IMG/VR virus record: IMGVR_UViG_3300037722_000354
Coordinates: 1 to 56,713 of that record
DNA: 56,713 bases
DNA from: a virus
Strand: one strand, 5' to 3'
The notes under the pieces are model-generated. The model was not told the DNA's origin, ran no database searches, and worked only from the letters and a program-made list of their open reading frames with translations. Shown here one piece after another: positions 25,573-39,144 of the stretch; the stretch's first letter is position 1; each line of letters opens with the position of its first letter. The position numbers and the translations under genes were made by a program.

Positions 25573-27227
25573 GCCGCCATCTGCGGATTCATGGCCTCGG
25601 TTACGGACTTGGAAGCCTCGGCAAGCGAACCGATTGATTCACCCGCTGCCTGTCCTTCAGCCAATGCCTGGGTGGCTGATTCCTGGTCTTCCCTCGCCTC
25701 ACGATTTTCCTGCACTTCGCCTTCCGAATGAACCCACTTCGACGGAGAGCCGGAACCCTTGATCGCGTCCGGCAATGCCGCTTCGTTATTGAAATGATCC
25801 GGCGCGCTCTTGTAAATCAGCGATGCCTTGCCGACGATTTCCAGATTGGCCATGTAGGTATGGACCTTGGCGCGCTCGATGGAATCCTGAAGCGGGTTAT
25901 TGAACTGGTAGATGATTTCCTTTCCGCGAAGCGGCTCAGGAATATCATCGACACTACCGAACGCCCCACGACGCATCAGAAAACCGAAACTCTCGTCGAG
26001 TAACCCGCCGTTGTAATCCTGTTCGGATGGCTCGAATAACGGCGTGATCTCCCGGATGAATTGCTCGTACAGGATGGAAGTCTCGTATGCGGTTTTGTCG
26101 CCCTGCTCAGGCAGGCCCAATTTATTCGTGAACCACGCCTTGGCGATCAGGGATTGCGTCCGCATGACCATTTCAAGGCCAAGCCCAACGTCCTTGCCCA
26201 GATCGATTGGCCTGACAGACGCACCAAATCTCTCGTCATAATCCCTATCAACATAGGTTATGCCGCCCGAATATAAATTGATTTCGCTTTTCAGCGCTTC
26301 TTCCGTGGCGATAAGCGGAGGATCAACACGCTTCTCACCCGCCTCGATCAGCACCCGCGCCATCGATTGAATCTGCCTAGCGTCCGGGAGCGACACCATC
26401 GCAGCCGGTGAAAACCCGTAAGGAGACATTCCGAACGTTTCCCACCGGGGGACGACATAGCGGAACGAATCTAGCGGCTCGTGGGCGATGATCTGAGCAT
26501 GGTCCACGTCCACGAATATCGACACAAACGGCAACCGCTTGGAATTCGTCTTCTTGCCGATATAGTCGTAATCCTCGGCTGGCATCACACAGTGAATAAT
26601 CTTGAACTCGCGATCCGGTTCTTTCTCGCAGGCCGTCTTGATGTCCTGATGCAACTTGGCGTCGGTAAAACGCTGCTTCAATTTACGCGCGGTCACCTTC
26701 GCCTTGCGATAGAGCAGATCAACCTTTCCCTCGTAGTTCTCCATCCATGCGCAATCGCGAAAATGAAACACGCTCCACGACATTCCATCTTTCGTGGGAA
26801 GTTCATCCAGCATCAATATGGCATTGCCGAACGTTACATAATCGTGGTCTGCACGCTTCGTTGAGCGGACGAACTTCGCCCTCCGGTCATAGAGCGCGCG
26901 CCTGTGGACTTTCGTGGTGTATTCAAGAAACCTTTGGCTTTCGGTATTGTTGGCGATTTCCTCGTCATCGACCGTATGCAGGAACCATTGCTTGTCCCGT
27001 GGCCGAAGCATGGCCGCCTGTGCATCGCCCAATTCCCGCCTTGCCAGCACGGGAAACGAGTCGAACAGATGCGAGGCGAATTCATCACCAAGCTCAAGCG
27101 GGGTCGTGAAATCCGCGCGTTCTGGGTAGAAGTTCTCGGCCAGTTCCTGGCACAAAGAGTCCAGGTCCGCCTTGGTCGAAAACAGTCTTCCCGAACGTTC
27201 GAGAATTTCCTTGGCGTTATTATCCAA
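25569..27227 (-). CDS. Portal (head-tail connector) protein, T7 gp8-like
   Basis: 552 aa. Position after terL. N-terminal ...LCQELAENFYPERADFT... and the Gln/Ala-rich acidic C-terminus resemble T7-type connectors. Confidence 0.75.
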   Translation of the reverse strand: MDNNAKEILERSGRLFSTKADLDSLCQELAENFYPERADFTTPLELGDEFASHLFDSFPVLARRELGDAQAAMLRPRDKQWFLHTVDDEEIANNTESQRFLEYTTKVHRRALYDRRAKFVRSTKRADHDYVTFGNAILMLDELPTKDGMSWSVFHFRDCAWMENYEGKVDLLYRKAKVTARKLKQRFTDAKLHQDIKTACEKEPDREFKIIHCVMPAEDYDYIGKKTNSKRLPFVSIFVDVDHAQIIAHEPLDSFRYVVPRWETFGMSPYGFSPAAMVSLPDARQIQSMARVLIEAGEKRVDPPLIATEEALKSEINLYSGGITYVDRDYDERFGASVRPIDLGKDVGLGLEMVMRTQSLIAKAWFTNKLGLPEQGDKTAYETSILYEQFIREITPLFEPSEQDYNGGLLDESFGFLMRRGAFGSVDDIPEPLRGKEIIYQFNNPLQDSIERAKVHTYMANLEIVGKASLIYKSAPDHFNNEAALPDAIKGSGSPSKWVHSEGEVQENREAREDQESATQALAEGQAAGESIGSLAEASKSVTEAMNPQMAA

Positions 27228-27434: not shown

Positions 27435-29006
27435 TTATCTCCTTCTTCTTTTTTTCGAGCTGGAATAACCTAAATTCGCGAATTGCTGCTTGGGATGCCG
27501 AAACGACGATGACGCCTTGTGCAGATGTCTGGTCAGAACCTCTTGTCCCTCACTGAGGCACATCACCATCGCATCACCCTTGCCGGGCGAGCGACCGATG
27601 CGCTTCCTGATTTCTTCCTTGCTCTCAATCTGAATGCCGCGTGTCGTCAGCTTCCAGTGAGGCGTGGCAAGGTCCGCCCTGATTTCCGCACCGGGTGGCA
27701 ATGCAATGACAGACCCGCCCTCTTGATCCGGGTCCAGTTCCTCGCGCATTCGCCACCAAGCTTCCGCGCGCTTGTTCACAAACGATAGCTTGCCGTCTTT
27801 GGTCTTTGAGATTGATGTTGCCGCGCCATTAAATGCGTGATGATCAATCTCGTTATCCTTCAATCGAAGCGTGACAGCCCCGCCATATCCCCCGCCAACA
27901 TCGACAATCACCGGGGCATTGTGCCTGCGGTATTGAACGATCTTACCCGCCGCCCTTGATCCGTCCGCCGTTTCGTCGCCCTTGGCTGTCTGTGGTTCGG
28001 CAAACCAGCCCTGATGTCGCCAGATTAATTCTTCCGCGTCGTTCCCACCCCCGGCAGGATCGAGCGCCATCGAAGTCATGTTGCACTTCAGGTAGCCGTC
28101 CGATCTCCACCGAGACTGTGCGGCCATAACCCACGCGGTAGGAATGACCTGAAACGGATTATCCCTCAGGCTCGCGTCGAACCGTCCGTCCTTGTAAGCC
28201 GCTCTTAGTTCGGGCGGCAGCGCCGCTAGGACCGAGCCGTAGTTCGTTTCGGCAAGATCGGGGTTGTCGGCAAGCTCTGCCGGTATGAACGTTCTCGACC
28301 GGGCCATGATCTGCTCGTCGTCGATTAAATGCGGACCCGGCCCGTCAACTTCGGTGTCTTCCCCCTTGATTGTCGTGAACCAGCGCAACTCGCCCGGCTT
28401 GGCCGGATTCGGATGATTGGGATCGACCCACGGTGCCCAGTATTTCAGGACCCACAAGCCTTCTGGCGTTGTCGGAGGGTTGCCAGCGGCAACAATTCGG
28501 CACCTTTGCCGTTTATCCGCTGCGCGATTCCAACCAGCAATGAAGCGGTATTGCGTCTCGGTGAAGTCGGAAACCTCGTCGAACGCGATCAGGTCGTGCG
28601 GCGAGCCCTTGAACTTCTGCTTGTCGTCTTCGTGCTGGCAGCCGTTGACATCGATAATCCTGCCATCTATCCGCCAGATGTTATCCTGCCCGTTCCACCC
28701 GTCGCGGCTTCCGAGGATTTCGACGAACCGTTCGACCAGCTTTGTGGCCTCTTTGTTTGTTCGCCTTAGAACCAGCGACTTTTGGTGCTCGGTCAAGGAC
28801 AGGCCCACGATCAGGTCCGTCTTTCCGCCCCCCGCCTGCCCGCCGTAGAACAGTTCGTCCGCCGTTGAGAAGTACGCTTCCGTTTGCGGGCCGGGGTTCG
28901 GCTTCCACTTGTACCGGGCGTTCGCCTTCACCGCCGCCTGGATTGCCGCTTCCTTCTCCTTCACCGGCAGGGCGTTCAACGCCTGTAGAACTTCCTCTAG
29001 CTGCAT
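27435..29006 (-). CDS. terL: Terminase large subunit
   Basis: 523 aa. Walker A FYGGQAGGGKTD and Walker B DLIAFDEVSD, followed by a nuclease-domain-sized C-terminal half. Confidence 0.9.
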   Translation of the reverse strand: MQLEEVLQALNALPVKEKEAAIQAAVKANARYKWKPNPGPQTEAYFSTADELFYGGQAGGGKTDLIVGLSLTEHQKSLVLRRTNKEATKLVERFVEILGSRDGWNGQDNIWRIDGRIIDVNGCQHEDDKQKFKGSPHDLIAFDEVSDFTETQYRFIAGWNRAADKRQRCRIVAAGNPPTTPEGLWVLKYWAPWVDPNHPNPAKPGELRWFTTIKGEDTEVDGPGPHLIDDEQIMARSRTFIPAELADNPDLAETNYGSVLAALPPELRAAYKDGRFDASLRDNPFQVIPTAWVMAAQSRWRSDGYLKCNMTSMALDPAGGGNDAEELIWRHQGWFAEPQTAKGDETADGSRAAGKIVQYRRHNAPVIVDVGGGYGGAVTLRLKDNEIDHHAFNGAATSISKTKDGKLSFVNKRAEAWWRMREELDPDQEGGSVIALPPGAEIRADLATPHWKLTTRGIQIESKEEIRKRIGRSPGKGDAMVMCLSEGQEVLTRHLHKASSSFRHPKQQFANLGYSSSKKRRRR

Positions 29007-29739
29007 TCTGCTCCTGCATTCTTCCCAAGACGCCTACCGCATAAGGATGCTGGACATAGGTGTTGGCGTGATACGTGTTGTCGTCGAACGCACCCTTGAT
29101 GAACATATATTCGTCGCGGTTCGCAGCCTGCCTCGATTCGCATTCCTTCAGCCGCTGGAATAGTTCCACCTTGCGCACGTCGAGCTTGATCCTGTGCGGG
29201 TTATGTTCCGAATACCCGTACATCTGTTGCGGATAGAACAGGTCTGACTCGGGCGGAATGTCGATGAATATGCCGCGCTTCATCGCTTCCCATATGAAAA
29301 ACTGACAGGCGGGCTTTTGTCGTTCGTATTCTTCTGTTGCCGCCATATCGACGCCGCGCCAGCCAAGGACGCCTAAATCTTCTTCCTCAAGGGCAAGTGC
29401 TGCCATGTAGCTGAGCGAGCTTTGCCAGAAGAACGGCCCGTACTTGTCGAGCATCTTTTCAATCGGATAGCGCCGGGAGTTTGGAATCTCCGGGTGCGGC
29501 TCGATCATCCAGACCGGCCCTTTGAACTCGGTCAGGAATTTCCAGTACGGATCGGACTTCTTGAACCACGGGAAGTCTTCCGTGACCCGATGCAGTTCAA
29601 ACCAGACATCAACGCGCTTACCGGCTATTGCGGTAGCGCATCCGGGAGAGCAACCCCAAAGCAACCAGCTTGGGTCATTGTGCGGGGCCAAGCGTATCGA
29701 CGATGGGGCGCTCCCCAGAAGGCAAATGCGTTTCGACAT
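28681..29739 (-). CDS. Candidate Maf/GT42-like (nonulosonate) transferase; the 3' 325 nt overlap terL out of frame
   Basis: N-terminal RICLLGSAPSS...VDVWFELH and central SLSYMAALALEEEDLGVLGWRGVDM echo the GNGPSL and G-x-D motifs of CstII/DUF115 enzymes. The tail after about aa 245 is Arg/Gly/Pro-rich low complexity. Confidence 0.35.
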   Translation of the reverse strand: MSKRICLLGSAPSSIRLAPHNDPSWLLWGCSPGCATAIAGKRVDVWFELHRVTEDFPWFKKSDPYWKFLTEFKGPVWMIEPHPEIPNSRRYPIEKMLDKYGPFFWQSSLSYMAALALEEEDLGVLGWRGVDMAATEEYERQKPACQFFIWEAMKRGIFIDIPPESDLFYPQQMYGYSEHNPHRIKLDVRKVELFQRLKECESRQAANRDEYMFIKGAFDDNTYHANTYVQHPYAVGVLGRMQEQNAARGSSTGVERPAGEGEGSGNPGGGEGERPVQVEAEPRPANGSVLLNGGRTVLRRAGGGRKDGPDRGPVLDRAPKVAGSKANKQRGHKAGRTVRRNPRKPRRVERAG

Positions 29740-29748
29740 CGAGCCTCG

Positions 29749-30186
29749 TTACGATGAGATGACTGCGGCGGACGAGCCGTGATGATTGATAACGAGCCAG
29801 ATCGTGCTGATGTCCTGCAATTCCACACCGGCGCCCGCCGCCGTGAACAGGATGTTGAACATCGACGAGCCAGCCGTGCTCGTGATTGAGCCATTGCCGG
29901 ACGAGATAGTTACGGTCTGTTGGGTTGATGCGCTGTTTGCGACAATGCGAACTCTGCGGCCCGAACCGCTCGGCGTTGGAAGCGTGTAGGTCGCTGCGCT
30001 CGCTGCCGCGATCAGGTTGAGGCCGTAGTCTTTCAACGTGTCGGTCGTGGTCGTGAAAGTCGTATTCTCGCTCCAGCCCGCGATGTTCGTATCGAGCAGA
30101 GCATCGTTGACGGGATCGTGAACCTTGATTGCGCCGGTTGCCGGGTCGTACCCAAACATACGGCCATAGATGGAATGGTAAGCCAT
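29749..30186 (-). CDS. Ser/Thr-rich small protein (virion/decoration candidate)
   Basis: 145 aa with TTFTTTTDT and SASTQQTVTISSGNGSITSTAGSS tracts. The C-terminus IWLVINHHGSSAAVISS resembles that of ORF 22972-23244. Confidence 0.5.
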   Translation of the reverse strand: MAYHSIYGRMFGYDPATGAIKVHDPVNDALLDTNIAGWSENTTFTTTTDTLKDYGLNLIAAASAATYTLPTPSGSGRRVRIVANSASTQQTVTISSGNGSITSTAGSSMFNILFTAAGAGVELQDISTIWLVINHHGSSAAVISS

Positions 30187-30260
30187 TGTTGTTGTTCCCT
30201 GTTTTTGCTTATTGAGTCGTGCTTATTGATGGGCCGGGATGGCCATGCGCGTTTGTCTTA

Positions 30261-30283
30261 CAAAACCGCCCGCGCGGTGCGGC
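30261..30283 (-). terminator. GC-rich hairpin plus T-run directly after the stop of gene 30284-30670
   Basis: Minus strand reads TAA-GCCGCACCGCGCGGGCGG-TTTTG. Confidence 0.4.
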
Positions 30284-30670
30284 TTATAGGAATGTATGGA
30301 TCGGGGCGAGGAACGCCGTAAGCGACGTGGCCGTGGTCTGCGCCACCGCTCCGGTCGAACCGTCCGAAACCGGCTGAATGTACTGAAAGCCCGCGAATAT
30401 ATCCGGGCTGATGTAATGAACTTGGCTTGACGTGGCGGTGACAATGAATTGCGAGTTTGTCGAATTCATCAGGGTGTACATTGCCGATGTGGAATTGCCG
30501 ACCTTGAACGAGAGATACGCGGAATCCCAAACGGACGAGAGTGCAATCCCCGTAAGGGTCAGGCCCTTGGTGTCGAGCACGTCGCCAAGCCCGTCAGCCG
30601 CCGTGGATATTGCAAGCGATACGGACTGCTTCAGGCTTGGAACCTGTTGAGTCGGATAGACAATAGCCAT
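30284..30670 (-). CDS. Small Ser/Thr-rich protein with a strong RBS (abundant structural-protein candidate)
   Basis: 128 aa. RBS ccaaggagaaaaaataATG. Followed by a terminator-like hairpin. Confidence 0.55.
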   Translation of the reverse strand: MAIVYPTQQVPSLKQSVSLAISTAADGLGDVLDTKGLTLTGIALSSVWDSAYLSFKVGNSTSAMYTLMNSTNSQFIVTATSSQVHYISPDIFAGFQYIQPVSDGSTGAVAQTTATSLTAFLAPIHTFL

Positions 30671-30767
30671 TATTTTTTCTCCTTGGGGCCGTCAGTCTTC
30701 ACGACAAACGACCCATGCCCTGCGGCTCCTTTGGAACCGCTCACGACGAATTTCACCACTCGCGCAG

Positions 30768-31913
30768 TTAATTGTGATTCCAGATTGCATCTTTGGTCCA
30801 TTGCCCGTCACCGTTCTTTGCCCACACGCGCGGGTCGCGGAATTGATCCGCTGTTTGTTCAAACTTGGTTCTCGTCATGCCGACATAATCCAGCCAGCGA
30901 ACCAGATCGCTCGGGACTACATGATCGTATTGGCGGATTAACTCGATGCCTTCCGCCCGCGTCATTTCACCGGCACGAATATCCCGGCAAACATGATCGG
31001 TGCAGCGCCCGTAACCGAACTTGATGTATTTCAAATAGTCATGCACGCCATCGTGCATATTGTTCAGGTTGCAGTCCCGCTTGTAGGTACGGTCCATGGG
31101 AGCCGGATTCTGCTCGAATCCGTATTGCTCCTGCATCAATCTCGATTGACGGTTCTGATTCCAGACGAAGTAATTGGAAATGAACACGCCGCGCAGTTCG
31201 ATCCGCTCGATCTCCGCATCGCTCGGGTACTTCGCCCATTGCAAATCCCGTTCGGTCAGCCCTTCCTCGCCAAGGAAGTCAGTCCATTCATAGCCGTGCT
31301 GTAGATGCTCCTTGCGGAAGCGGGACGTGTATTCAACCATGTCCCGGTAGGAGTGCATTCCCCCAAGGTCCATGAAACCATGCTCGCCCCAGATAACGAG
31401 CTGTATCTGGTATTTGACCGCGATCTGCGTCGGGAAGCAGTTAATTCCCATGTGAGCGTGCATGTCGGTATCGCCCATCTTGCGAAGGCCAACACGGTTC
31501 AGCTTTTTCAATACCTCAATTGAGGGCGTGAAATTGATGTAGTCGCAATTGAAACAGTCTTTCATGCGCTGGATATTGCGCTTGCCGACTTCCGTCTCGT
31601 TGTTCTCGTTGTAGCAGACTAGGAGCGGGTTCATGCCGTATTGCTTGACGGTGTGAATCTGCCAGTAGCTGTCCTTGCCGCCCGAAACCGGGATTAAACA
31701 GTCGTAGCCGACCGGCCTGCGGTATTCGTCGCACAGTTCCGCGAACTGCTTCTCGCGTGCAGTCCAGTCTATTCCCTGTTTTTCCTCTGCCGTCCTGCAC
31801 CCGGAACAGACTTGCTCATTGTCGAAATGAACCGGCGCGGCGGCGATCATCGGGTAGCAGCAACGCTGGCAGTACGATTGCCTAGGCGGCGATGTCGTAG
31901 TCGAACCGGACAT
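30768..31913 (-). CDS. N-acetyl-sugar amidotransferase (PseA/WbuX-type PP-loop enzyme)
   Basis: 381 aa. N-terminal Cys pairs CQRCC...CSGC and the PP-loop LIPVSGGKDS, as in the acetamidino-forming LPS/flagellin-glycan amidotransferases. Confidence 0.7.
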   Translation of the reverse strand: MSGSTTTSPPRQSYCQRCCYPMIAAAPVHFDNEQVCSGCRTAEEKQGIDWTAREKQFAELCDEYRRPVGYDCLIPVSGGKDSYWQIHTVKQYGMNPLLVCYNENNETEVGKRNIQRMKDCFNCDYINFTPSIEVLKKLNRVGLRKMGDTDMHAHMGINCFPTQIAVKYQIQLVIWGEHGFMDLGGMHSYRDMVEYTSRFRKEHLQHGYEWTDFLGEEGLTERDLQWAKYPSDAEIERIELRGVFISNYFVWNQNRQSRLMQEQYGFEQNPAPMDRTYKRDCNLNNMHDGVHDYLKYIKFGYGRCTDHVCRDIRAGEMTRAEGIELIRQYDHVVPSDLVRWLDYVGMTRTKFEQTADQFRDPRVWAKNGDGQWTKDAIWNHN

Positions 31914-32583
31914 TAAAACCTTGCCGTCTTAGGTATTGCTTCGCCCGTTTGTACGAGGACTCCACGAAGTGGAAGATGTTACCTGCGGCCACTGCGTGGG
32001 CTCCGGATATGAGGGCGTCTCGGAAATGTGAATAGTCCCCGCAGCCTCCCGCTGCCACCACGGGGATCGTGATTCCGCCCGCAACTCGCTCAATTGCTGC
32101 ACAATCAAAGCCAATTGCCGTTCCATCGCGCTCAATCGCGTGGAGAAAGATTTCTCCCGCGCCCTTGGCTTCCGCTTCTTGCGCTGTTTCTGCATTTCCA
32201 TCATCCACCGAAACCACAACCGCCTGTGAGCCGAACTTGTCCGCTATGCTCTCGATCAGGCCGGGTATCTTCGCACCCCTGCCGATCAATACCTTGTCCG
32301 CACCGTTCCTGATTAATCTTGCCGCATCGTCGAGCGACCGCACATTCCCGCCAACGGTGAGCGGCATGAAAGCCCTGTCTGCAATTGCACGGAGCAATTC
32401 ATCCCCGATGCCGGGGCCGTCCCTCGTTATGTCAATGTAGCAAACCTCGTCTGCCTGCCATTCGTCGTAACGGGCCAACTCGTCGAACGGATTGCCTATG
32501 ACCTTGAACTCACTGCACCGCTCGCTTCTGACGATCCGCCCGTTCATTAGAAAGATGACGGGGATAATTCGCGTCGTCAGCAT
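31882..32583 (-). CDS. HisF-like (imidazole glycerol phosphate synthase cyclase-type, WbuZ-like) protein
   Basis: 233 aa from the ATG at 32583. RIIPVIFLMNGRIV...LTVGGNVRS...PVVAAGGCG is the (beta/alpha)8 HisF pattern. Overlaps both neighbours. Confidence 0.7.
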   Translation of the reverse strand: MLTTRIIPVIFLMNGRIVRSERCSEFKVIGNPFDELARYDEWQADEVCYIDITRDGPGIGDELLRAIADRAFMPLTVGGNVRSLDDAARLIRNGADKVLIGRGAKIPGLIESIADKFGSQAVVVSVDDGNAETAQEAEAKGAGEIFLHAIERDGTAIGFDCAAIERVAGGITIPVVAAGGCGDYSHFRDALISGAHAVAAGNIFHFVESSYKRAKQYLRRQGFNVRFDYDIAA

Positions 32584-33203
32584 TTCTCCACCACAATCAA
32601 CGCCGCCGGGTTCTCCGGGTTCGCATCCAAGCCCCACAATTCGCACTTGGGCTCATATCCCAATTCCAGAATTGCAGCGGGCAACCCCCGCACATAGCCA
32701 AACATATCCATCCTTGCCCGCGCGCTTTCGTGCGCCAGTTCATAGGACGGCTCGACCATCACAAGTGCCTTGCGGGTCACTCGTAATAGCTCCCTCAATA
32801 TCTCCATCTCACGTCCGCCGTTCGGTTCAATCGCGTGATAGGTCGTAACCACGTCGAACGACTCGCTACCCAACGGGATTGCATCCAATGGCGACTGGAT
32901 GAACATTCCAGTCAGGCCGTTGTCCCGCATGTGCTTACGTGCGATGTCGAGCCTCGGAAGCGATATATCAAAACCTAGAACTCGTCTTGGCTTGACCTTC
33001 ATTGCCAGCAGAAGCGGCACAAGCGTTGTCGCCTCGCCCGTTCCTGCGTCCAATAGATTAACCGGCTCATATCGCTCAATGACGCTGGCGAGCTTCTTGC
33101 CTATTTCGGCCTTTTGATCGGCGTAAGTCTGGTTGGCTAATGCTGCGATGTAGGTTCCGGCTTGCAGGTCGTAGGACTGTTCAATCTCGGCGGTGGTTCT
33201 CAA
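32577..33203 (-). CDS. Class I SAM-dependent methyltransferase
   Basis: 208 aa. LLDAGTGEATT (motif I-like) and FDVVTTYHAIEP. The TTG start overlaps the stop of the upstream micro-ORF. Confidence 0.6.
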   Translation of the reverse strand: MRTTAEIEQSYDLQAGTYIAALANQTYADQKAEIGKKLASVIERYEPVNLLDAGTGEATTLVPLLLAMKVKPRRVLGFDISLPRLDIARKHMRDNGLTGMFIQSPLDAIPLGSESFDVVTTYHAIEPNGGREMEILRELLRVTRKALVMVEPSYELAHESARARMDMFGYVRGLPAAILELGYEPKCELWGLDANPENPAALIVVEKC

Positions 33204-33307
33204 GACGTTGCCCGCACCACAACAAAGATTAACGAAGCGATTGAAATGCCGAGGGCGAAAAAAGCGAGCGCAAGCGCCACCATGACGGCCCCGTATGCGT
33301 CGCTCAC
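33200..33307 (-). CDS. Micro-ORF encoding a single-TM peptide (35 aa)
   Basis: A GTG start forms GTGA with the PhyH stop, and its TGA overlaps the TTG start of the methyltransferase. Peptide (M)SDAYGAVMVALALAFFALGISIASLIFVVVRATS. Confidence 0.35.
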   Translation of the reverse strand: MSDAYGAVMVALALAFFALGISIASLIFVVVRATS

Positions 33308-34080
33308 GGCTTCACCACCAGATTAGCCCGCCCGCAATCCCGCCCGACATAAGGCGTCACATCAAACTCCCCGCTCAATGTCAAATCATCCTCCGGCGTC
33401 CACACCCGCGTAACGCACGCGAAGCTATAACCATCCGACGTGTTCGGGTTGGAACGATGAATCAAATTCCTGTCGAAGACAATCAAATCCCCGCGCTTGC
33501 TCTCGCAAACATGCTCAGGGAATTCAGCCACGAAATTCTCAGGCACCTCGAATTGACGGAAAGCGTTCTGTCCCTCTTGATATTCCGCAAACGGCCAGTC
33601 CCGCTTATGGCTCCCGAGCTTCACGCTCATCACCCCGTTGTCCTTGGTCTTGTCGGCAAATACCGGAAACCAGATGTTCAGGAAGCGGCGGCGCTTGGGA
33701 TAGTAATGCGCCTCGCTATGCCATTTATAAAGCAGCCGTGTTGTGTTCGGGCGGTTGATAAGCAAGCCCGGCCCGCTGATTAAGAGATTCCTCGTACTGC
33801 ATTGCAAGAGGCCAGCGCACGTCTCGCGGAATTGCTCACCGAATAACTCCCCAACCCAAGGCGAGAGTGGCAGCATCTTCTGCACCTGATAGAGTGCTTC
33901 CTTGTCCTTGGCTTCCATCGCCTCGCAGATCGCCGGTAGATCGTCCGGCAAATCGCTGTAGTCAGCTATCTTGTGGGCCTGGAGCGAATAAAGCCTTGTG
34001 ATCGATTGCTCGAATTCAGTCAGATCATCCAGATCGAAGAAGCGCTTGATATGGGTAAAGCCCCTGTCGGCAAAACTCAC
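33304..34080 (-). CDS. Phytanoyl-CoA dioxygenase (PhyH)-family Fe(II)/2-oxoglutarate oxygenase
   Basis: 258 aa. WHSEAHYY (H-x-D/E facial-triad context) and a distal NLIHRS His. Size and pattern fit PhyH. Confidence 0.55.
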   Translation of the reverse strand: MSFADRGFTHIKRFFDLDDLTEFEQSITRLYSLQAHKIADYSDLPDDLPAICEAMEAKDKEALYQVQKMLPLSPWVGELFGEQFRETCAGLLQCSTRNLLISGPGLLINRPNTTRLLYKWHSEAHYYPKRRRFLNIWFPVFADKTKDNGVMSVKLGSHKRDWPFAEYQEGQNAFRQFEVPENFVAEFPEHVCESKRGDLIVFDRNLIHRSNPNTSDGYSFACVTRVWTPEDDLTLSGEFDVTPYVGRDCGRANLVVKP

Positions 34081-34709
34081 GTCTTGCCTTTCTCAAATAA
34101 CCAATAATGTAAATTATCCAACCCCGTCTCTCGCTTCCAAATAAATCCATAACTCAAGCATTTCAAATCGGGAAAGCTATCCATCCAGAACGAACCGAAG
34201 TCCCGCTTGAACAGCTTGTCCTCGTTATACCGATAAGGAATGCTCACCGGCGTATCGTTGAAATATTCAATGCAGGCGACCCACCGGGAGGCACACCGAT
34301 GGATCGACCTGCACGAGTCAGCCAATTCATGGGGAGGGACATGAATCAGGACGCCGGAAGTGAAAGCCAGTTCGGCTACATTGTCGGGAAACCCGATATT
34401 CTGTGCCGTCCCGTCGATGACCTGTTCGCACAGCCCGGTTAGTTCAAGGTCTGTCCTTGCCTGTTCGTTCGGTTCGACCGCGTAGAACTTGGGCCTTCCA
34501 TCCAACAGGTAATTGAGCGATTTGATATTGAGGCCGGTATTGGACCCGACTTCCAGAATACTCCCCGGCACCTTGCCAAGCGCAAGCATTATGCGAGCCC
34601 ACAAGAGATTATAGGCTGGCAGGTAGTCCTCATCGTTCCTGATCGAATATGAGTTTCCGAAACTCCCGCGCCAGAATTCCTCTTGCGGTGTAATGCCGTT
34701 TGCCTTCAC
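34077..34709 (-). CDS. Pseudaminic-acid-biosynthesis-associated methylase family protein
   Basis: The GTG at 34709 makes a GTGA overlap (the ORF extends to 34742). QEEFWRGSFGNSYSIRN...ILEVGSNTGLNIKSL matches the family pattern FW.g.FG..Y..RN ... iLE.G.N.G.NL. Confidence 0.65.
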   Translation of the reverse strand: MKANGITPQEEFWRGSFGNSYSIRNDEDYLPAYNLLWARIMLALGKVPGSILEVGSNTGLNIKSLNYLLDGRPKFYAVEPNEQARTDLELTGLCEQVIDGTAQNIGFPDNVAELAFTSGVLIHVPPHELADSCRSIHRCASRWVACIEYFNDTPVSIPYRYNEDKLFKRDFGSFWMDSFPDLKCLSYGFIWKRETGLDNLHYWLFEKGKT

Positions 34710-34960
34710 AGTTTGCGCGCCTTCAGTTCGCCGCCTTCCCATGTGACCGCGTGGGTTTCACCAACCCAACCGCGCGGGAGTATGGCATCATGAAGCGCAA
34801 TCTCAAGCTGGCGAACGCGGTTTTCCCAATGACCCCGCTCATAGTTCAATCGCTGTATGGCGTGTGTAACCATCGGCCTAGTCACTGCTTCGCCACGGCC
34901 AGCCCAATCGTGAAGTTCCTGTAAATGGTCGTCCAGCTCATACTTGAAAACCTCAGGCAT
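34706..34960 (-). CDS. Hypothetical small protein within the sugar cluster
   Basis: 84 aa from the ATG at 34960 (8-nt overlap with the PseI-like stop). No motif recognised. Confidence 0.45.
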   Translation of the reverse strand: MPEVFKYELDDHLQELHDWAGRGEAVTRPMVTHAIQRLNYERGHWENRVRQLEIALHDAILPRGWVGETHAVTWEGGELKARKL

Positions 34961-35699
34961 GAATTGCCTCGACCATCTGCCTGAATTCGTCCGGCTCCAA
35001 TGAGAACGCAGCGTCAGGCCCGCCATTCGAGCGAGATAGCGTTATGTGCTTCTCAATGATCTGGGCGTTGTAGTTCTTGACCGCGCTGACCGCCGCTTCA
35101 ATACCGGGCGTATGATCGGAGAAGCCTATGCGCCTCGACGGCAAGGCCCTATGCAACTCCCTTATTCTGTGAAGCATCGCTTCCTCAATCTTGCACGGGT
35201 AGCGTGAGACACAATGCAAGTATGAAATATCGTTATCCGGTAGCTCTGGTATATCCTTGCCGGGTAGTGAAATTACGATTGGCTTGCCGGTATCTGCCGC
35301 CGACATAATCAGCCGCCCGTCGCCCGCCTCCATCGCACTGATCTTGTACGCAGGGCACCCGAGCGTTTCGAGAAACTCAATATCCTTCACATCGAATACC
35401 GACGAGAAGACCTGAATTCCAATATCCCGCCCGTATTCAAATAGCTTGGGAAACCATTCCCTTGGCGTGTGCGTCTCGCGGTACAGGTCCAGCAGATTGC
35501 GCCCGTCCCACAATCCGCCCGACAGCACCTTATCCTTGCCGCCCCTGCGTTCGGCCAATCGTTCTGGATCGAAACATTGCAGCTTGGCAGCGTCAGCGCC
35601 CGCATCCTTCGCGGCCCGGATCAATGTCAATGCGTTCGTGAACTGCCCGCGATGCTCGCCGCTTAGCTCGGCAATGATAAACGGCTTAGCGAAGCGCAT
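34953..35699 (-). CDS. pseI: Pseudaminic acid synthase-like (NeuB-family nonulosonate synthase) without a SAF domain
   Basis: 248 aa. FIIAELSGEH...AAKLQ...AYKISA...GFSDHT... is the NeuB TIM-barrel pattern. It ends before the usual C-terminal SAF/antifreeze-like domain. Confidence 0.7.
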   Translation of the reverse strand: MRFAKPFIIAELSGEHRGQFTNALTLIRAAKDAGADAAKLQCFDPERLAERRGGKDKVLSGGLWDGRNLLDLYRETHTPREWFPKLFEYGRDIGIQVFSSVFDVKDIEFLETLGCPAYKISAMEAGDGRLIMSAADTGKPIVISLPGKDIPELPDNDISYLHCVSRYPCKIEEAMLHRIRELHRALPSRRIGFSDHTPGIEAAVSAVKNYNAQIIEKHITLSRSNGGPDAAFSLEPDEFRQMVEAIHA

Positions 35700-36093
35700 A
35701 GGTTTCCTGAATCAGCTTGAAGCCCTGATCCTTGAAGAACTCGATGCTCCGGGAATTCCTGGGCGAGACGTTCGCCAGCATCTTGCCCGGCCAGTATTTG
35801 CGCAATTGGGCCAATGCCTCTGCCCCATAGCCCTTGCCCGCGTGCTTCTGGAACAGGAACAGCCCGACCTCTCTCTGCTTGCTCAGATAGATAGAGCCTA
35901 CAATCTCATCATCGTTGTGGATCAGATACCAAGCTTTGTACGGGACGGAATTCACGAACTCGACGTGCTGCTCATAGCTCGGCATGGAGCAATGGCTGAT
36001 GCTTTGGTCCGCCGTGCGTTCGGCCAATAGCTCGTAGAGAATGCGGCAGGTCTGTTCGGTAGGACCGCATTTGTAGATGTTGCGCAGATTCAT
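35686..36093 (-). CDS. pseH: GNAT N-acetyltransferase (PseH-like)
   Basis: 135 aa. ...IVGSIYL...KHAGKGYGAEAL...SIEFFKDQGFKL contains the GNAT Q/R-x-x-G-x-G/A acetyl-CoA motif (HAGKGYG). Sits between the PseF-like and PseI-like genes. Confidence 0.6.
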   Translation of the reverse strand: MNLRNIYKCGPTEQTCRILYELLAERTADQSISHCSMPSYEQHVEFVNSVPYKAWYLIHNDDEIVGSIYLSKQREVGLFLFQKHAGKGYGAEALAQLRKYWPGKMLANVSPRNSRSIEFFKDQGFKLIQETYALR

Positions 36094-36725
36094 GCGGCTT
36101 GGCGGGCCTGCATGAATTCCGCCAATCGCTTAATATCCTCTGCATAGTCAATGGTATATCGGTCGTCGGTCATTTTGCGCAGCGACGACAATTCAGCTGT
36201 CTCGCAGTTGCTCTGCATCCAAGAAGTGACGTGCTCCCGATCATATGGGTCAGTAGCTTCCGTGTTTGCCTGCGCAAGCGCACGCATAGTAAAGGCCTCA
36301 CAATCATAGCCGCGTGGCCACGTCCGCCTCGGATACACGTTGCTCGCGTAGTCCACGCACAACGCAAAACGAAGGGCTATTACGCGGTCACATAGAAAAG
36401 GCTCAATCAATGGGCAGTCGCCAGTAATGCGAACAATAACATCGACGTCACTAAGCCCAAAAGACTCCGCCGCATTATAGAACCGCGTCAGAACGTCATT
36501 CTCATCGCACTGGTCATACCAAGCGCGGAAGTCGCATTCGTCAATGACAGGCTGTAGTGCGTCTGCGTCAGCATATGGTGCCGCTACGCAATAATGGTCC
36601 GCTTTAATCTGTTTCGCCCTCGTCAGCACATGCCATAGCACTGGATGGCCGCATAGCTCAGCCATGACCTTTCCGGGGAAACGCTTGGAGCCAAGTCTTG
36701 CTTGAACTATGACGGCGGTCCTCAT
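36090..36725 (-). CDS. pseF: Cytidylyltransferase (PseF/SpsF-type CMP-nonulosonate synthetase)
   Basis: 211 aa. N-terminal AVIVQARLGSKRFPGKV is the signature of acylneuraminate/SpsF-type cytidylyltransferases. Confidence 0.7.
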   Translation of the reverse strand: MRTAVIVQARLGSKRFPGKVMAELCGHPVLWHVLTRAKQIKADHYCVAAPYADADALQPVIDECDFRAWYDQCDENDVLTRFYNAAESFGLSDVDVIVRITGDCPLIEPFLCDRVIALRFALCVDYASNVYPRRTWPRGYDCEAFTMRALAQANTEATDPYDREHVTSWMQSNCETAELSSLRKMTDDRYTIDYAEDIKRLAEFMQARQAA

Positions 36726-37306
36726 CGGAACAACTCCACCTGACTAAGATCAGGATAGTCACTGTTCGGCAGCGGCTCGTTGTTCTTGGGCAGGATTGCC
36801 AGTCTCGTTAAACCTTCCGCAGCATCCCTCGGCATCATGTACGCATGATAGCCAAGCACGTCGAACGTGGACTCGCCTCGCTCACTGCGTCCGTCAAATC
36901 TAGCCTTGCGTAGCCATTCGTCGGCTTTGGGATCGTCGTGCAGGATCGCCCCGCCCTGTCCAACCGACAGATGTTTGCTCCAGTGAAACGACAGGCACAT
37001 CATCCCACCAAGGTACATGCCGCTCGTTAGCAACCGCGCATAGTCAAAGATCGGATATGGATAGAGCTGATAGCCGCCAACCCATTCGTGGTCCCGAAAC
37101 TTAACCTTCCCGCCCACGTTTAATATGCTCATAGGCACGCCGACATAAGTCCGCTTCGGTATTTCTACCTCGTCAACCTTATGCCATTTGCACGCCAACA
37201 ATAATGCCATCGTGCAGGACGTAGTGGCAACCGCGTAAGGAGCACCGGTATATTCGCACAGCGCCCGCTCGAACATGCGGACCACTTCAAATGGATCGCA
37301 GGACAT
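36722..37306 (-). CDS. pseC: Truncated-size DegT/DnrJ/EryC1-type PLP aminotransferase (PseC-like)
   Basis: 194 aa. AVATTSCTMALLLA...EVEIP and SFHWSKHLSVGQGGAI (PLP-lysine context SF..K....GeGG). About half the normal length of the family. Confidence 0.55.
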   Translation of the reverse strand: MSCDPFEVVRMFERALCEYTGAPYAVATTSCTMALLLACKWHKVDEVEIPKRTYVGVPMSILNVGGKVKFRDHEWVGGYQLYPYPIFDYARLLTSGMYLGGMMCLSFHWSKHLSVGQGGAILHDDPKADEWLRKARFDGRSERGESTFDVLGYHAYMMPRDAAEGLTRLAILPKNNEPLPNSDYPDLSQVELFR

Positions 37307-37418
37307 ATATCAGTTTAATCACTACGACCAATAACAAGACTCCGGCGATTGACCAGCAATAGATCAAATAGGATCGCCACGCGGGATCAGCCCAAATCTC
37401 TTTGATTTCGCGAATCAT
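37287..37418 (-). CDS. Micro-ORF encoding a single-TM peptide (43 aa)
   Basis: The ATG forms ATGA with the PseB-like stop, and the ORF overlaps the PseC-like start by 20 nt. Peptide MIREIKEIWADPAWRSYLIYCWSIAGVLLLVVVIKLIYVLRSI. Confidence 0.4.
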   Translation of the reverse strand: MIREIKEIWADPAWRSYLIYCWSIAGVLLLVVVIKLIYVLRSI

Positions 37419-38254
37419 ATCGTCTCCAATGCGCGGGTTAATTCAGGAACCGCCATCCTACGGGCGGCATCACTCGAATTGCCATCGCACATTGCTTCGT
37501 GCTGTTTCTCATATTTGGGCAGGCCAATAACGTTAATCTGCTTCCCCATCGCCTCTGCAAGATCGGCCAGTCGGTAAGCAGGCAGCGTCGGGATATTCAA
37601 CTCCCCGCCCTTCATTGTCTCAATCGTCTTGATTACCAGATCAATCGCTTCGTCCATCAGCATCCAGAACCTGGTACAGTCAGGATCGGTCACGGGGACC
37701 ACGCCGTTCATCCCGCGCCATCTTGGAATTACCGAGCCCTGCGAGCCAGCGACGTTTCCATATCTCGTGACAGCGAATATCGGCCCGTCCTCGCCCCGCG
37801 TATTGTTGGCGTTCAGGAACAGGCTTTCAGCCAATGCCTTGGTCTGGCCGTAAGGACTCACCGGCTGATATGCCTTGTCGGTGCTTAGTGCGACGACCTT
37901 CTGAACCCCGGCATCCTGGGCGGCTTCAATGACGTTCATGGCTCCGTGAACGTTCGTCTTCACCATTTCTCCGGGATTGTACTGCCCGACCTCGATACGC
38001 TTTAGTGCGGCGGCGTGTACGACCAGATCGACTCCACTAAAAGCACGCCTAAGCCTATCCCTATCGCGCACGCACCCGAGTAAATAACGAACTCGACTAT
38101 CATTGATATCATCGGCCATCTCGGCTTGCTTGTGTTCGTCCCTCGATAGAACAGCTACACGCCTTGGCTTGTGGTCGCGCAATAATCTCTTGACGAATGC
38201 CCTGCCGAAACTGCCCGTGCCACCTGTAATCAGGACCGATTGGCCGTCGATCAA
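37415..38254 (-). CDS. pseB: UDP-GlcNAc 4,6-dehydratase (PseB/FlaA1/CapD-type short-chain dehydratase)
   Basis: 279 aa. VLITGGTGSFG...VHAAALK...STDKA...YGQTK...RYGNVAGSQGSV follows the PseB sequence pattern closely. The TTG start overlaps the terS-like stop (cATTGA). Confidence 0.8.
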   Translation of the reverse strand: MIDGQSVLITGGTGSFGRAFVKRLLRDHKPRRVAVLSRDEHKQAEMADDINDSRVRYLLGCVRDRDRLRRAFSGVDLVVHAAALKRIEVGQYNPGEMVKTNVHGAMNVIEAAQDAGVQKVVALSTDKAYQPVSPYGQTKALAESLFLNANNTRGEDGPIFAVTRYGNVAGSQGSVIPRWRGMNGVVPVTDPDCTRFWMLMDEAIDLVIKTIETMKGGELNIPTLPAYRLADLAEAMGKQINVIGLPKYEKQHEAMCDGNSSDAARRMAVPELTRALETI

Positions 38255-38589
38255 TGTGCAGTCTCTTGCTTCTGCTTAACGGCGCGGGCCAGAAGGAATG
38301 AAACTTCACGCGCGGCTTCGGTGTCGTTTACCGTGCGAATCTCAAGCGGATTGTCGGGGTCACCAGTCAGTTGCATTGCTTGCGCGGGCTTGCCGTCTAA
38401 GCGGTCTGCGATTTCCCGGATTGCCCAGCCTTCACCATTCCCAGCCAGTTCGAGAAGCTTCTTGGCTATTTCGCGCAGCGCTTTATGGTCTGCACCAACA
38501 GCAGCTATTTCCATCCGAAGCGCATCGGCAAACGGCTTCTCTATCTTCCGCCCATCTGGGTTTCCAGATTGGCCAGGCTTCCACGCCAT
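38251..38589 (-). CDS. terS: Terminase small subunit candidate (GQSGNP-motif family)
   Basis: 112 aa from the ATG at 38589, MAWKPGQSGNPDGRK... The N-terminal GQSGNP.GR motif is common in small terminases of alphaproteobacterial phages. First gene of the late array. Confidence 0.5.
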   Translation of the reverse strand: MAWKPGQSGNPDGRKIEKPFADALRMEIAAVGADHKALREIAKKLLELAGNGEGWAIREIADRLDGKPAQAMQLTGDPDNPLEIRTVNDTEAAREVSFLLARAVKQKQETAH

Positions 38590-38859
38590 TGCTAGCAATC
38601 CTAAATTATTGTGTTGTCTAAGCCCTATCGTCTCGATGATGGGGGATGGGGATTGTTGGAACACATTTGATTTCGGAACGAATCCTTCACGCACCCTTCC
38701 GGGGCGGGATAGACCAAATCATAGGCATATTACTTTGCCAACCTCTCAGCGCATATCGCCATGCCTGAGACGCGGGCTCTCAGACATTTAGTCCTTTGTA
38801 CTCAGTGCCTGGCTGCTATCAATTCTTCACCGCTCATTCCGAGCGGAGGAGAAACGAAA

Positions 38860-39144
38860 ATGCAAATCGGATTAGAGGCACAAGTAAGAGCCAACATCAT
38901 CAACCGCGCGGCGAAAGGATGGCAGCTCGCATTTACGGACGGCAACTTATTCGACGAGGGCTGGCTGATTGAAAAGACGGAAGGGCTTTTCGCCGTACCG
39001 CACACAAACAAGGATGCCACAGAATTTGTTGTGACTAGGGCTTGGGACGAAGACCCGTTAGCACTTCTCGCTCTCGACTTTCTGCGGCTGAACAGCCCGT
39101 TCAGATATGTGGAAGCAATTAAGATTGCGCACGACTCTGCGTGA
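38860..39144 (+). CDS. Hypothetical protein (opposite-strand gene in the late-operon leader)
   Basis: 94 aa from the ATG at 38860, preceded by gagcggaggagaaacgaaa. Followed by a perfect hairpin. Confidence 0.5.
   Translation: MQIGLEAQVRANIINRAAKGWQLAFTDGNLFDEGWLIEKTEGLFAVPHTNKDATEFVVTRAWDEDPLALLALDFLRLNSPFRYVEAIKIAHDSA

Follow-up and report, generated by a model that had tools for sequence, protein, structure and literature searches.

A reduced pseudaminic acid-type gene cassette, with a putative transferase and candidate acceptor proteins, between the terminase genes of a temperate phage

In the uncultured phage genome analysed here (IMGVR_UViG_3300037722_000354; 56,713 bases, the whole of which is referred to as the window), a block of co-directional genes is inserted between terS and terL, the genes for the two terminase subunits. 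The block encodes shortened relatives of the enzymes of bacterial pseudaminic acid (Pse) synthesis, a set of sugar-tailoring enzymes, two small Ser/Thr-rich proteins (orf128 and orf145) and a protein, orf352, with a predicted sialyltransferase-like fold. On balance, we favour the view that this is a phage-encoded module that makes and transfers a nonulosonic acid, that it is placed at the start of the late operon in a temperate podophage, and that the acceptor is a phage protein. The module is widespread, and is described in no deposited phage genome and in no publication found.

An earlier note on this DNA had described the block as a modified pseudaminic acid pathway hard-wired between terS and terL, and had named its enzymes by family. 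Each of these families is confirmed by Pfam and NCBIfam profile hidden Markov models (HMMs), with the qualification that the core enzymes are shortened and score below the equivalog cutoffs; the genes for orf128, orf145 and orf352, which lie in the same interval, had been left uninterpreted. The glycosylation proposed in that note, with virion proteins or the host surface as the presumed target, is made more credible by the sialyltransferase-fold gene next to terL, by its Ser/Thr-rich partners and by the recurrence of the module in many phages.

Organization of the block between terS and terL

The borders of the block and the small open reading frames (ORFs) within it are as follows (positions are those of the window; other genomes and contigs are referred to by L numbers).

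38590-38859, no strand: divergent intergenic region, 270 nt, between terS (minus strand) and a plus-strand gene at 38860-39144, delimited by codon-position GC
38251-38589, minus strand: terS candidate, 112 aa, which opens the co-directional block (DUF5681, 32.3 bits against a cutoff of 27.5)
37287-37418, minus strand: small ORF, 43 aa, hydrophobic, one predicted membrane helix; fills the PseB/DegT gap and has an ATGA overlap with PseB
34706-34960, minus strand: orf84, 84 aa, no assigned family; fills the PseI/methylase gap
33200-33307, minus strand: small ORF, 35 aa, hydrophobic; fills the gap between the PhyH and second methyltransferase genes, with 4-nt overlaps on both sides
30670-30801, minus strand: small ORF, 43 aa; overlaps the end of WbuX and stops at the start of orf128 (TAATG)
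27435-29006, minus strand: terL, 523 aa (phrog_979, E=8e-30)

The two terminase genes are normally adjacent, as the earlier note had it, and in the window 9.2 kb of co-directional minus-strand genes lies between them. In a cultured relative, Acidovorax phage AP1, terS directly adjoins terL, so this separation is real and unusual. Assignment of the terS candidate is reasonable on sequence grounds. Its last 40 aa are 75% identical to the C terminus of the terS of a close relative, L002 (IMGVR_UViG_3300037755_000177; terL 89% identical), which matches phrog_606 (E=3.5e-60) and is 57% identical to a GP3_package terS. A C-terminal motif, (E/D)xAR.x.FLL, is common to the window terS and the terS-like genes of relatives. 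The start at 38589 is favoured by codon-position GC, and the 5' extension at 38590-38694 is not coding-like. The window terS itself has no PHROG match, and PHROG scans of the terS-like and small proteins of relatives gave no matches either.

The TTG start of the PseB gene overlaps the terS stop codon (TTGA), as previously noted. With the small ORFs included, each of the 15 junctions between terS and orf128 is an overlap, and no intergenic bases are left; the overlap is of exactly 4 nt in eight of them, and not in almost every one as had been claimed. Without the small ORFs, 4-nt overlaps are found at four junctions only, and four gaps of about 100-210 nt appear (filled by 37287-37418, 34706-34960, 33200-33307 and 30670-30801). 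The idea that these gaps break the operon was rejected, since small overlapping ORFs occupy them. The sole spacers before terL are of 97 nt, between orf128 and orf145, and 9 nt, between orf145 and orf352.

Upstream of terS, the plus-strand ORF from 38860 is coding-like by codon-position GC; a minus-strand ORF at 38802-39170 was rejected as non-coding by the same measure. The 270-nt region at 38590-38859 is the probable site of a late promoter. No sigma-70-like site was found in this region, and within the block consensus scans gave no more promoter-like or terminator-like sites than expected. The distance from the block to the integrase gene is 27 kb, and the block does not have the make-up of a moron (a separable unit with its own promoter and terminator, near att/int). 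Because no intergenic bases separate the genes from terS to orf128, the gene upstream is divergent and there is no internal excess of promoters or terminators, the sequence supports a cassette hard-wired into the late (packaging/head) operon. The view of the earlier note, that the pathway is part of the packaging/late transcript and not an independent moron, is thereby supported at the level of sequence.

The small ORFs differ in their conservation. The reality of the ORF at 37287-37418, absent from L014, L015 and L016, is uncertain, and the two hydrophobic ORFs (37287-37418 and 33200-33307, with one likely membrane helix each) are not conserved in L014, L015, L016 and L002. orf84 was predicted independently in Logan as well, by the gene caller used there on an identical contig, and is coding-like by codon-position GC; it is an insertion relative to L014, in which PseI abuts the methylase gene, and scans of Pfam, NCBIfam and PHROG gave no family match. 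A longer ORF at the same place, orf106 (34706-35026), was considered as a frameshifted SAF domain of PseI and rejected, having no family match and being absent from L014; its coding part is the independent 84-aa ORF. The peptide encoded at 30670-30801 is conserved in L014 (49 aa, ...VVSGSKG..G.GSF...PKEKK), with indels that are multiples of 3.

Predicted core sugar-synthesis enzymes

Five genes downstream of terS encode the predicted core of the pathway. Families were scored with the Pfam and NCBIfam profile HMMs, and the NCBIfam equivalog cutoffs were taken as the membership criterion.

37415-38254, minus strand: PseB-like UDP-GlcNAc 4,6-dehydratase, 279 aa, C-terminally shortened (Polysacc_synt_2, E=1.3e-74)
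36722-37306, minus strand: mini-DegT, a PseC-like aminotransferase of 194 aa, against about 380 aa (PF01041, E=2e-21, in two stretches)
36090-36725, minus strand: CTP_transf_3 cytidylyltransferase, 211 aa, PseF role by position (PF02348, E=2e-22)
35686-36093, minus strand: small GNAT acetyltransferase, 135 aa, PseH role by position (Acetyltransf_3, Acetyltransf_1)
34953-35699, minus strand: PseI-type nonulosonate synthase, 248 aa, TIM barrel only, without a SAF domain (PF03102, E=4e-58)

The PseB-like dehydratase has its best NCBIfam match in TIGR03589 PseB (327 bits, against 182 for FnlA and 62 for LegB). The score lies under the TIGR03589 cutoff of 407.75 because about 45 C-terminal residues are missing. 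Its best match in the Protein Data Bank (PDB) is Helicobacter pylori PseB (2gn4, E=2e-75), the TGGTGSFG and STDKA..YGQTK motifs are intact, and the ratio of non-synonymous to synonymous substitution rates (dN/dS) is 0.10-0.11. The PseI-type synthase, similarly, scores 247 bits with TIGR03586 PseI against 170 with NeuB, and falls below the PseI cutoff of 340 because the SAF domain is absent. Its best PDB match is a pseudaminic acid synthase (8h2c, E=3.5e-46), and the metal-binding His motifs SDH and EKH are present. The nearest homologues of this protein form a SAF-less clade of 250-310 aa, and cellular alphaproteobacterial PseI proteins with a SAF domain are about 48-50% identical. The earlier note had named another hexosamine pathway (CapD/FnlA type, with no NeuB-fold condensing enzyme) as the assignment that would speak against it; the much higher score of PseB than of FnlA and the presence of a NeuB-fold enzyme point the other way.

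The mini-DegT protein lacks about 55 central residues and the C-terminal domain. TIGR03588 PseC is its best NCBIfam match, yet at 46 bits against a cutoff of 423.5 it is not a full-length PseC. In seven phages its orthologues are 171-207 aa long and 52-61% identical, with the pyridoxal phosphate (PLP)-binding Asp (DxAR) and Lys (SxHxxK) invariant. A HMMER search of 1.84 billion representatives returned 148 clusters (50% identity) at E<=1e-30, nearly all of about 200-260 aa. The same domain occurs within longer proteins of 344-866 aa (P0224, P0248, P0276, P0305, P0321 and P0346), and fusions with other enzymes therefore exist.

The cytidylyltransferase matches KdsB-type models in NCBIfam and scores 17.7 bits with TIGR03584 PseF, far from the cutoff of 205.7; its best PDB match is the cytidylyltransferase 6oew (E=8.5e-23). 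The GNAT protein has generic GNAT matches only, with no PseH equivalog match. All cassettes have it at a conserved place, which in the window is between the genes for the cytidylyltransferase and the synthase, and the PseH role is assigned from this position.

All of the core enzymes are thus shortened variants, and they score under the NCBIfam equivalog cutoffs because they are shorter than their bacterial counterparts. The dN/dS ratio is 0.04-0.39 for each gene for which it was computable, including orf128, orf145 and orf352 (against L002 and L014); mini-DegT against L014 was saturated. By this measure the cassette genes tested are under purifying selection. The low dN/dS, the conserved length and PLP residues of mini-DegT, and the existence of a SAF-less PseI clade indicate that the reduced enzyme set is conserved and is not in decay.

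Predicted tailoring enzymes

Five genes downstream of the synthase encode predicted tailoring enzymes.

34077-34709, minus strand: Pse-associated methylase, 210 aa (TIGR03587, 152 bits, above the cutoff of 112.05)
33304-34080, minus strand: PhyH-family Fe(II)/2-oxoglutarate dioxygenase, with a presumed tailoring role (PF05721, E=2.6e-15)
32577-33203, minus strand: second class-I S-adenosylmethionine-dependent methyltransferase (MT2), 208 aa (Methyltransf_25, Methyltransf_11)
31882-32583, minus strand: WbuZ/HisF-like protein, associated with glycosyl amidation (His_biosynth, E=2.5e-39)
30768-31913, minus strand: WbuX PP-loop N-acetyl sugar amidotransferase, 381 aa, with the SGGKDS motif (TIGR03573, 318.8 bits, above the cutoff of 203.2)

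By strict equivalog criteria, the methylase and WbuX are the only members of the cassette to pass. The methylase start at 34709 is backed by the alignment with L014 and by the Logan gene call. The WbuZ-like protein has TIGR03572 WbuZ as its best model at 181.7 bits, under the cutoff of 299.7, followed by AglZ/HisF2 at 161 bits. WbuX and WbuZ were defined in O-antigen clusters making acetamidino hexosamines. The dN/dS ratios are 0.09-0.14 for MT2, 0.10-0.13 for WbuX and 0.14 for the PhyH protein, which is 91% identical in L002. PhyH genes are also found beside the cassettes in L015 and L027.

The putative transferase and its Ser/Thr-rich partners

Between WbuX and terL are three genes for which no enzyme family was recognized by sequence.

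30284-30670, minus strand: orf128, small Ser/Thr-rich protein of low charge, candidate virion or acceptor protein
29749-30186, minus strand: orf145, Ser/Thr-rich, with a conserved Ser/Thr C-terminal tail, directly upstream of orf352; candidate glycan acceptor
28681-29739, minus strand: orf352, putative nonulosonic acid transferase, last gene before terL; core of aa 1-277 (28909-29739)

orf352 belongs to a family of at least 97 homologues, none of which has a Pfam domain. Structure prediction and a fold search, which the earlier note had suggested, were run on this protein. The AlphaFold model has a mean confidence (pLDDT) of 89.8, and its top fold match in the PDB is the sialyltransferase CstII (1ro8_B, E=4.4e-4, probability 1.0); human ST8SiaIII also matches. 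Among the viral models of BFVD, matches were to uncultured-phage proteins, an MptE-like protein and a DUF115 protein. The sialyltransferase/MptE-like fold is also that of Maf-type flagellin nonulosonate transferases. As modelled, orf352 has the Rossmann-like GT-A-variant fold of this sialyltransferase/Maf group. From this fold and from synteny, we infer that orf352 is a nonulosonate transferase. Its 3' tail overlaps terL by 326 nt in another frame (28681-29006) and has a non-coding-like codon GC (0.79/0.61/0.43), and the L002 orthologue ends at 276 codons, with a 98-nt overlap. The additional 75 residues probably arose by artefactual read-through after loss of a stop codon and do not represent a functional extension.

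orf128 and orf145 differ in composition from the enzymes of the block, with Ser and Thr making up 26-27% of residues and charged residues 7-10% (27% and 7% for orf128), against 9-12% and 25-29% in the enzymes. In the orf145 family the Ser/Thr content is 24-31%, and the proteins end in tails of the type ..TTST or ..ISS. Members of this family are present in L002, L014, L010, L023, L024, L025, L026, L027 and L028, and the dN/dS of orf145 against L002 is 0.04. Homologues of orf128 occur at the same position in L002, L014, L024 and L025. orf128 has no Pfam, PHROG or PDB match, and the family profiles of both proteins gave no match in searches of PDB and Pfam and in PHROG scans.

Upstream of orf128, the stretch at 30671-30767 is predicted to form an unusually stable RNA structure (-39.1 kcal/mol, z = -3.95); at its end is AAGGAG, a strong ribosome-binding site for orf128. 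The gene is followed by a weak hairpin with a run of T behind it. Together with the small peptide encoded at 30670-30801, these features hint that orf128 is highly expressed.

Recurrence in other phages

At least 10 further genomes of uncultured phages carry the reduced cassette, in every case within or next to head/packaging genes. A gene of the orf145 family adjoins one of the orf352 family in 10 of the 10 loci in which the upstream neighbour was checked (the window, L002, L014, L010 and L023-L028). In five of ten loci found without PseI as a query, a NeuB gene lies within 10 kb, and L002 retains a partial cassette.

The closest relatives show how the block varies. L014 has the same layout as the window, with a portal protein that is 74% identical, and shares the cassette, orf128, orf145 and orf352. 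Its terL (11244-12470) belongs to another type (Terminase_6N/6C), and where the window has terS, upstream of PseB, L014 has an unrelated gene of 146 aa; the arrangement is consistent with a joint swap of both terminase subunits around the retained cargo. L002 keeps terS, PseB, PhyH, MT2, WbuZ, WbuX, orf128, orf145, orf352 and terL. In L002 the PseB stop codon overlaps the PhyH start by 4 nt, and a 546-nt insert with a ribbon-helix-helix-like small ORF takes the place of the 35-aa ORF of the window.

In L023, L024 and L025, the cassette consists of PseB, mini-DegT, the cytidylyltransferase, a WbuX-like protein, a HisF-like protein, GNAT and a NeuB with SAF domain. It is followed by a terS-like gene, one or two Ser/Thr-rich small proteins (one of them orf145-like), an orf352-like gene, terL and portal. 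L010 has the downstream half of this layout, from the methylase onward. In L027 and L028 a SAF-less cassette precedes orf145-like and orf352-like genes, (terS), terL and portal. L016 is P22-like (P22 portal, scaffold and coat). Its reduced cassette, at 5130-13315, comes directly after the coat gene, with an 85-aa Ser/Thr-rich ORF and an MptE-like gene (PF01973, weak) ahead of it; the L016 PseI protein is present in 37 sample blocks. L026, with a Mu-type portal, has no sugar genes in the vicinity; its orf145-like/orf352-like pair is located two genes downstream from a capsid-E-like gene.

Within the T7-type-portal lineage, the orf145/orf352 pair, often with orf128, lies between terS and terL, the exception being L028, in which a terS-like gene follows the pair. 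The position of the sugar cassette relative to terS also varies: some members have it upstream, and in others, among them the window, L002 and probably L014, it lies downstream. On present sequences, placement between terS and terL is one of several permutations of a widely recurring module. The synteny proposed in the earlier note was therefore recovered in part: the module recurs in uncultured phages, terS-cassette-terL being only one of its placements, and none was found in deposited phages.

Other genes are associated with the module in individual genomes. HNH homing-endonuclease genes lie between cassette genes in L028 (7818-8354 and 12528-13085) and L024 (1035-1541), and the terL of L028 (15884-18583) is 899 aa long with a faint LAGLIDADG match; these point to selfish-element traffic within the module. 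L027 (2142-3813) carries an extra SASA-family (sialate O-acetylesterase-like) gene and a GDSL esterase, and L015 (13408-19947) extra HMGL-like, AMP-binding, cyclase, Antibiotic_NAT and DUF4910 genes, which suggests diverse acyl decorations of the sugar. Two members of the same terL clade as the window have other genes upstream of terS-terL: in L004 (4617-8906) these are SDR, FAD-oxidoreductase and methyltransferase genes, together with an orf352-like gene that is truncated, and in L005 (1305-6287) they encode two FkbM methyltransferases and another methyltransferase. As judged from these genomes, there is a hotspot for modification enzymes upstream of the terminase genes.

A set of 50,697 deposited phage records yielded no close homologue of PseB or PseI, and the NeuB matches in it numbered three, all weak. 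A lone, remote orf352-family gene is present in deposited phages, in Microcystis phage Mvi-Yong1342-1 (PP496355.1; L017, 5905-6708). It lies directly upstream of terS-terL with no sugar genes nearby, and is annotated 'type 11 methyltransferase', an annotation that we deem wrong. A PseI-based scan of IMG/VR, made with peptide patterns that were too narrow, returned no relatives. In a full-text literature search, no phage-encoded Pse pathway or nonulosonate cassette with a transferase was described; the single mention of 'nonulosonic' in a phage paper was an unrelated reference and was discarded. The deposited records and the literature thus agree with the statement in the earlier note that no characterised system of this architecture was known.

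Proposed pathway and alternative explanations

In the pathway that we propose, firing of the late promoter would lead to expression of the cassette. The PseB-like dehydratase, the mini-PseC and the small GNAT would convert host UDP-GlcNAc to a UDP-2,4-diacetamido-6-deoxy-altrose intermediate. Removal of UDP (the PseG step) would presumably be carried out by the host, after which the SAF-less PseI would condense the sugar with phosphoenolpyruvate and the CTP_transf_3 enzyme would make the cytidine monophosphate (CMP)-activated sugar. WbuX and WbuZ may turn an acetamido group into an acetamidino group, as PseA does in Campylobacter, and the Pse-associated methylase, MT2 and the PhyH dioxygenase could add further tailoring (methylation, hydroxylation). 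Judged by its fold and synteny, orf352 would then move the activated sugar onto Ser/Thr residues of a phage protein, for which orf145 and orf128 are the best candidates and the capsid and fibres the alternatives. The outcome would be virions decorated with a pseudaminic acid derivative. Gene content, coupling, selection, fold and synteny are observations; the remainder of this scheme is a proposal. Flagellin pseudaminylation is common in alphaproteobacteria, and since an alphaproteobacterial host is suggested (see below), a host PseG is plausible.

Several observations weigh against this proposal. The phage is temperate, as its integrase indicates, and the late timing of the block is a deduction from gene layout. 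No PseG (UDP-sugar hydrolase, GT-B fold) and no HisH/WbuY-type glutaminase was detected among the window ORFs scanned, a set that takes in nearly all called ORFs from about 160 aa upwards, or in related cassettes. With no PseG encoded, the UDP-hydrolysis step probably comes from the host or from an unrecognised protein, and the ammonia for WbuX/WbuZ is perhaps supplied likewise. PseB, PseC, PseI, PseF and WbuZ are below their equivalog cutoffs and the GNAT has no PseH-specific match; with such scores, the product could be another 5,7-diamino nonulosonate. L002 lacks the 3.4-kb segment from DegT to the methylase (window 34079-37473 against L002 4257-4313), so either the cassette is partly dispensable or the retained genes act on a host-made sugar. 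For orf352, no sequence-level link to glycosyltransferases was found with Pfam, PHROG, NCBIfam, phmmer, a profile search of the PDB or hhalign (in the hhalign comparison with the MptE-like protein of L016, the G-x-x-P-S loop alone was aligned), and the TM-scores to CstII are modest, at 0.39-0.47. It is for these two reasons that its assignment as a transferase is offered as an inference. Homologues of orf352 are also found in phages without nearby sugar genes (L012, a prophage in assembly GCA_040960765.1; L017; and L026). The AlphaFold model of orf145, built from three sequences, is of low confidence (pLDDT 40), and as a virion protein orf145 has the status of a candidate.

The sugar might be destined for the host surface, through modification of flagellin, pili, lipopolysaccharide (LPS) or capsule in place of the virion, and the effect might then be a block to superinfection, reduced adsorption to debris or lysogenic conversion. 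In bacteria, pseudaminic acid has its known roles on flagellins and on polysaccharides of the surface, and host molecules are the substrates of Maf/CstII-type enzymes. In addition, the phage is temperate, with its integrase at 112-1182, and orf352 homologues in phages without sugar genes could draw on a host CMP-sugar pool. A pseI gene has been listed as an auxiliary metabolic gene in Pacific Ocean viromes, where it was read as augmenting host motility (PMC6359870). We nevertheless regard this explanation as unlikely, given that the genes are overlap-coupled to terminase genes and do not form a stand-alone moron near the integrase, and that elsewhere the module lies directly beside coat, portal or terminase genes. 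The transferase candidate is always paired with a phage Ser/Thr-rich small protein, which a host-directed enzyme would not need, and no membrane translocation, flippase or polymerase genes are present among the scanned window ORFs. It is also improbable, in our judgement, that the product is something other than a pseudaminic acid, whether another 5,7-diamino nonulosonate (legionaminic acid, acinetaminic acid or a new stereoisomer) or, in part, an acetamidino 6-deoxyhexosamine. The sub-cutoff core enzymes, the KdsB-like cytidylyltransferase, the generic GNAT and the absence of PseG would all fit such a product, as would the origin of WbuX/WbuZ in acetamidino-hexosamine O-antigen clusters and the retention of PseB, WbuX and WbuZ in L002 without any NeuB. 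The scores of PseB (327 bits, against 62 for LegB and 182 for FnlA) and PseI (247, against 170 for NeuB) nonetheless favour pseudaminic acid; the Pse-specific methylase model passes its cutoff, and, among solved structures, PseB and PseI have their best matches in H. pylori PseB and a pseudaminic acid synthase, respectively.

That the block is a decaying set of auxiliary metabolic genes, the shortened remnants of a captured host island whose pathway no longer works, is very improbable. Relative to the bacterial proteins, PseB, PseC, PseH, PseI and PseF are each reduced in length by 10-50%, there is no PseG, and five genes have been lost in L002; yet dN/dS is 0.04-0.39 in the genes tested, the catalytic motifs are intact, the base composition of the block equals that of the rest of the genome, and the reduced lengths and gene order are kept across phages that are only 35-60% identical. 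We give next to no weight to DNA hypermodification, in which the activated sugar would be placed on phage DNA as a protection against restriction. Phage sugar pathways at times serve DNA glycosylation (reportedly so in PMC13326640), and the block adjoins packaging genes. Against this, genome scans detected no base-modifying enzyme, whether a thymidylate-synthase-like hydroxymethylase, a DNA glycosyltransferase or a kinase; the fold of the transferase candidate places it with sialyltransferase/Maf proteins, and its conserved partner is a Ser/Thr-rich protein.

Tentatively, we advance a broader proposal, in which a large and hitherto unrecognized group of tailed phages (podophages with a T7-type portal, one or more P22-like phages and a phage with a Mu-type portal) would make its own CMP-pseudaminic-acid derivative with a minimal, phage-specific set of enzymes, and a dedicated sialyltransferase-fold enzyme would attach it to a dedicated Ser/Thr-rich virion protein. 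If this is true, it would be the first case of virions that carry a nonulosonic acid made by the virus itself, and the module would hold a new nonulosonate transferase family, a sugar aminotransferase reduced to about 200 aa and a SAF-less Pse synthase. At the bacterial surface, sialic-acid-like sugars control motility, recognition by the immune system and the adsorption of phages. Their presence on virions would give a new view of virion surfaces with regard to stability, adhesion to mucus and glycocalyx, avoidance of self-adsorption and the immune visibility of therapeutic phages. The minimal PseC and PseI would be useful for enzymology and for the chemoenzymatic synthesis of pseudaminic acids, and the acceptor and transferase would offer a natural pair for glycoengineering. 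At less than 10 kb, the whole module is within reach of synthesis, so that the idea lends itself to direct testing.

The phage genome and its probable host

The window is a complete circular phage genome, since its end repeats the first 127 bp (127-bp direct repeat, 1-127 and 56587-56713). Genes outside the block that bear on the lifestyle, host and structure of the phage are the following.

112-1182, plus strand: tyrosine integrase, which marks the phage as temperate
23258-24193, minus strand: major capsid protein, another possible acceptor (PF19821 Phage_capsid_2, E=2.9e-21)
25569-27227, minus strand: T7-type portal protein, into which the operon continues downstream (PF12236 Head-tail_con, E=1.4e-55)
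43148-43651, minus strand: homologue of the GcrA-like cell-cycle regulator (PF07750)

Other genes in the window include those for a primase-helicase, a NusG-like antiterminator and a GH108 endolysin; there are no tRNA genes or Rfam families. GcrA is typical of Alphaproteobacteria and their phages. The GcrA-like gene is the best host clue in the window, and the host is probably an alphaproteobacterium. The window terL shares 41-44% identity, across 87-92% of the protein, with the terL proteins of Acidovorax phage AP1, Caulobacter phages and Bordetella phage BPP-1. Comparison by megablast of 17 kb around the block found no DNA-level match in deposited phages. A Logan contig, SRR12682375_58398 (52,385 bp), has PseI and neighbouring genes identical to those of the window. 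A terL scan of GTDB genomes gave no match, and an orf352-profile scan for hosts yielded four fragments of metagenome-assembled genomes only, and no reliable host.

One further sugar-related gene lies elsewhere in the window. A TylF-like sugar O-methyltransferase is encoded at 8968-9651 (plus strand; PF05711, E=5e-7), on the opposite strand to the cassette and within the tail-gene block, flanked by two Ser/Thr-rich fibre-like proteins of 414 and 466 aa.

Comparison with known systems

The pseI gene of the ocean viromes (reviewed in PMC6359870) resembles the present case in being a pseudaminic acid synthase gene in viral sequence. It differs in that it is a single gene in unassembled data, with no cassette, transferase or genomic context. 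Campylobacter jejuni CstII (GT42; PDB 1ro7, 1ro8) is the best fold match of orf352, with which it shares a Rossmann-like core opening with a G-x-x-P-S loop. Sequence identity is 14-15%, however, and orf352 adds a long C-terminal helical hairpin; CstII acts on lipooligosaccharide.

Prophage serotype-conversion modules (gtrABC, Oac) are stand-alone cassettes near attachment sites, which are expressed in the lysogen and act on O-antigen at the membrane. They too are glycan-modifying genes of temperate phages. The block in the window differs from them in being overlap-coupled to terminase genes and in having no membrane machinery. Among giant viruses, chlorovirus PBCV-1 with its capsid glycans and mimivirus with its fibril sugars encode both the synthesis of sugar nucleotides and their transfer for their own particles. 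These are viruses of eukaryotic hosts, with other sugars and enzymes; unlike the phages considered here, they are not tailed phages and do not have the pathway embedded in a packaging operon.

Among tailed phages, virion glycosylation, said to influence the immune recognition of mycobacteriophages, reportedly occurs in Che8, Corndog and Myrna. The glycosylation genes of mycobacteriophages lie beside structural genes and are expressed late, and their products modify capsid or tail proteins. The glycosyltransferases use host nucleotide sugars, and we know of no nonulosonic acid pathway, CMP-sugar chemistry or dedicated small acceptor in these phages. Glycosylation genes next to structural genes are common to both; the mycobacteriophage sugars are different ones, and the window phage encodes a sugar pathway of its own.

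The bacterial Pse/flagellin islands of Campylobacter, Helicobacter, Aeromonas and Caulobacter (PseB/C/H/G/I/F, PseA, and Maf or FlmG) have the same enzyme families as the phage cassette in a similar order, including the Pse-associated methylase and a WbuX/PseA-type amidotransferase. The sialyltransferase/MptE-like fold is that of Maf, and Ser/Thr is the likely acceptor in both. In contrast to these islands, the phage cassette is within a predicted late operon and has no PseG; PseC is halved to about 200 aa, PseI has no SAF domain, and PseB, GNAT and the cytidylyltransferase are shortened. orf352 has no sequence similarity to Maf, FlmG or GT42, and the candidate acceptor is a small phage protein in place of flagellin.

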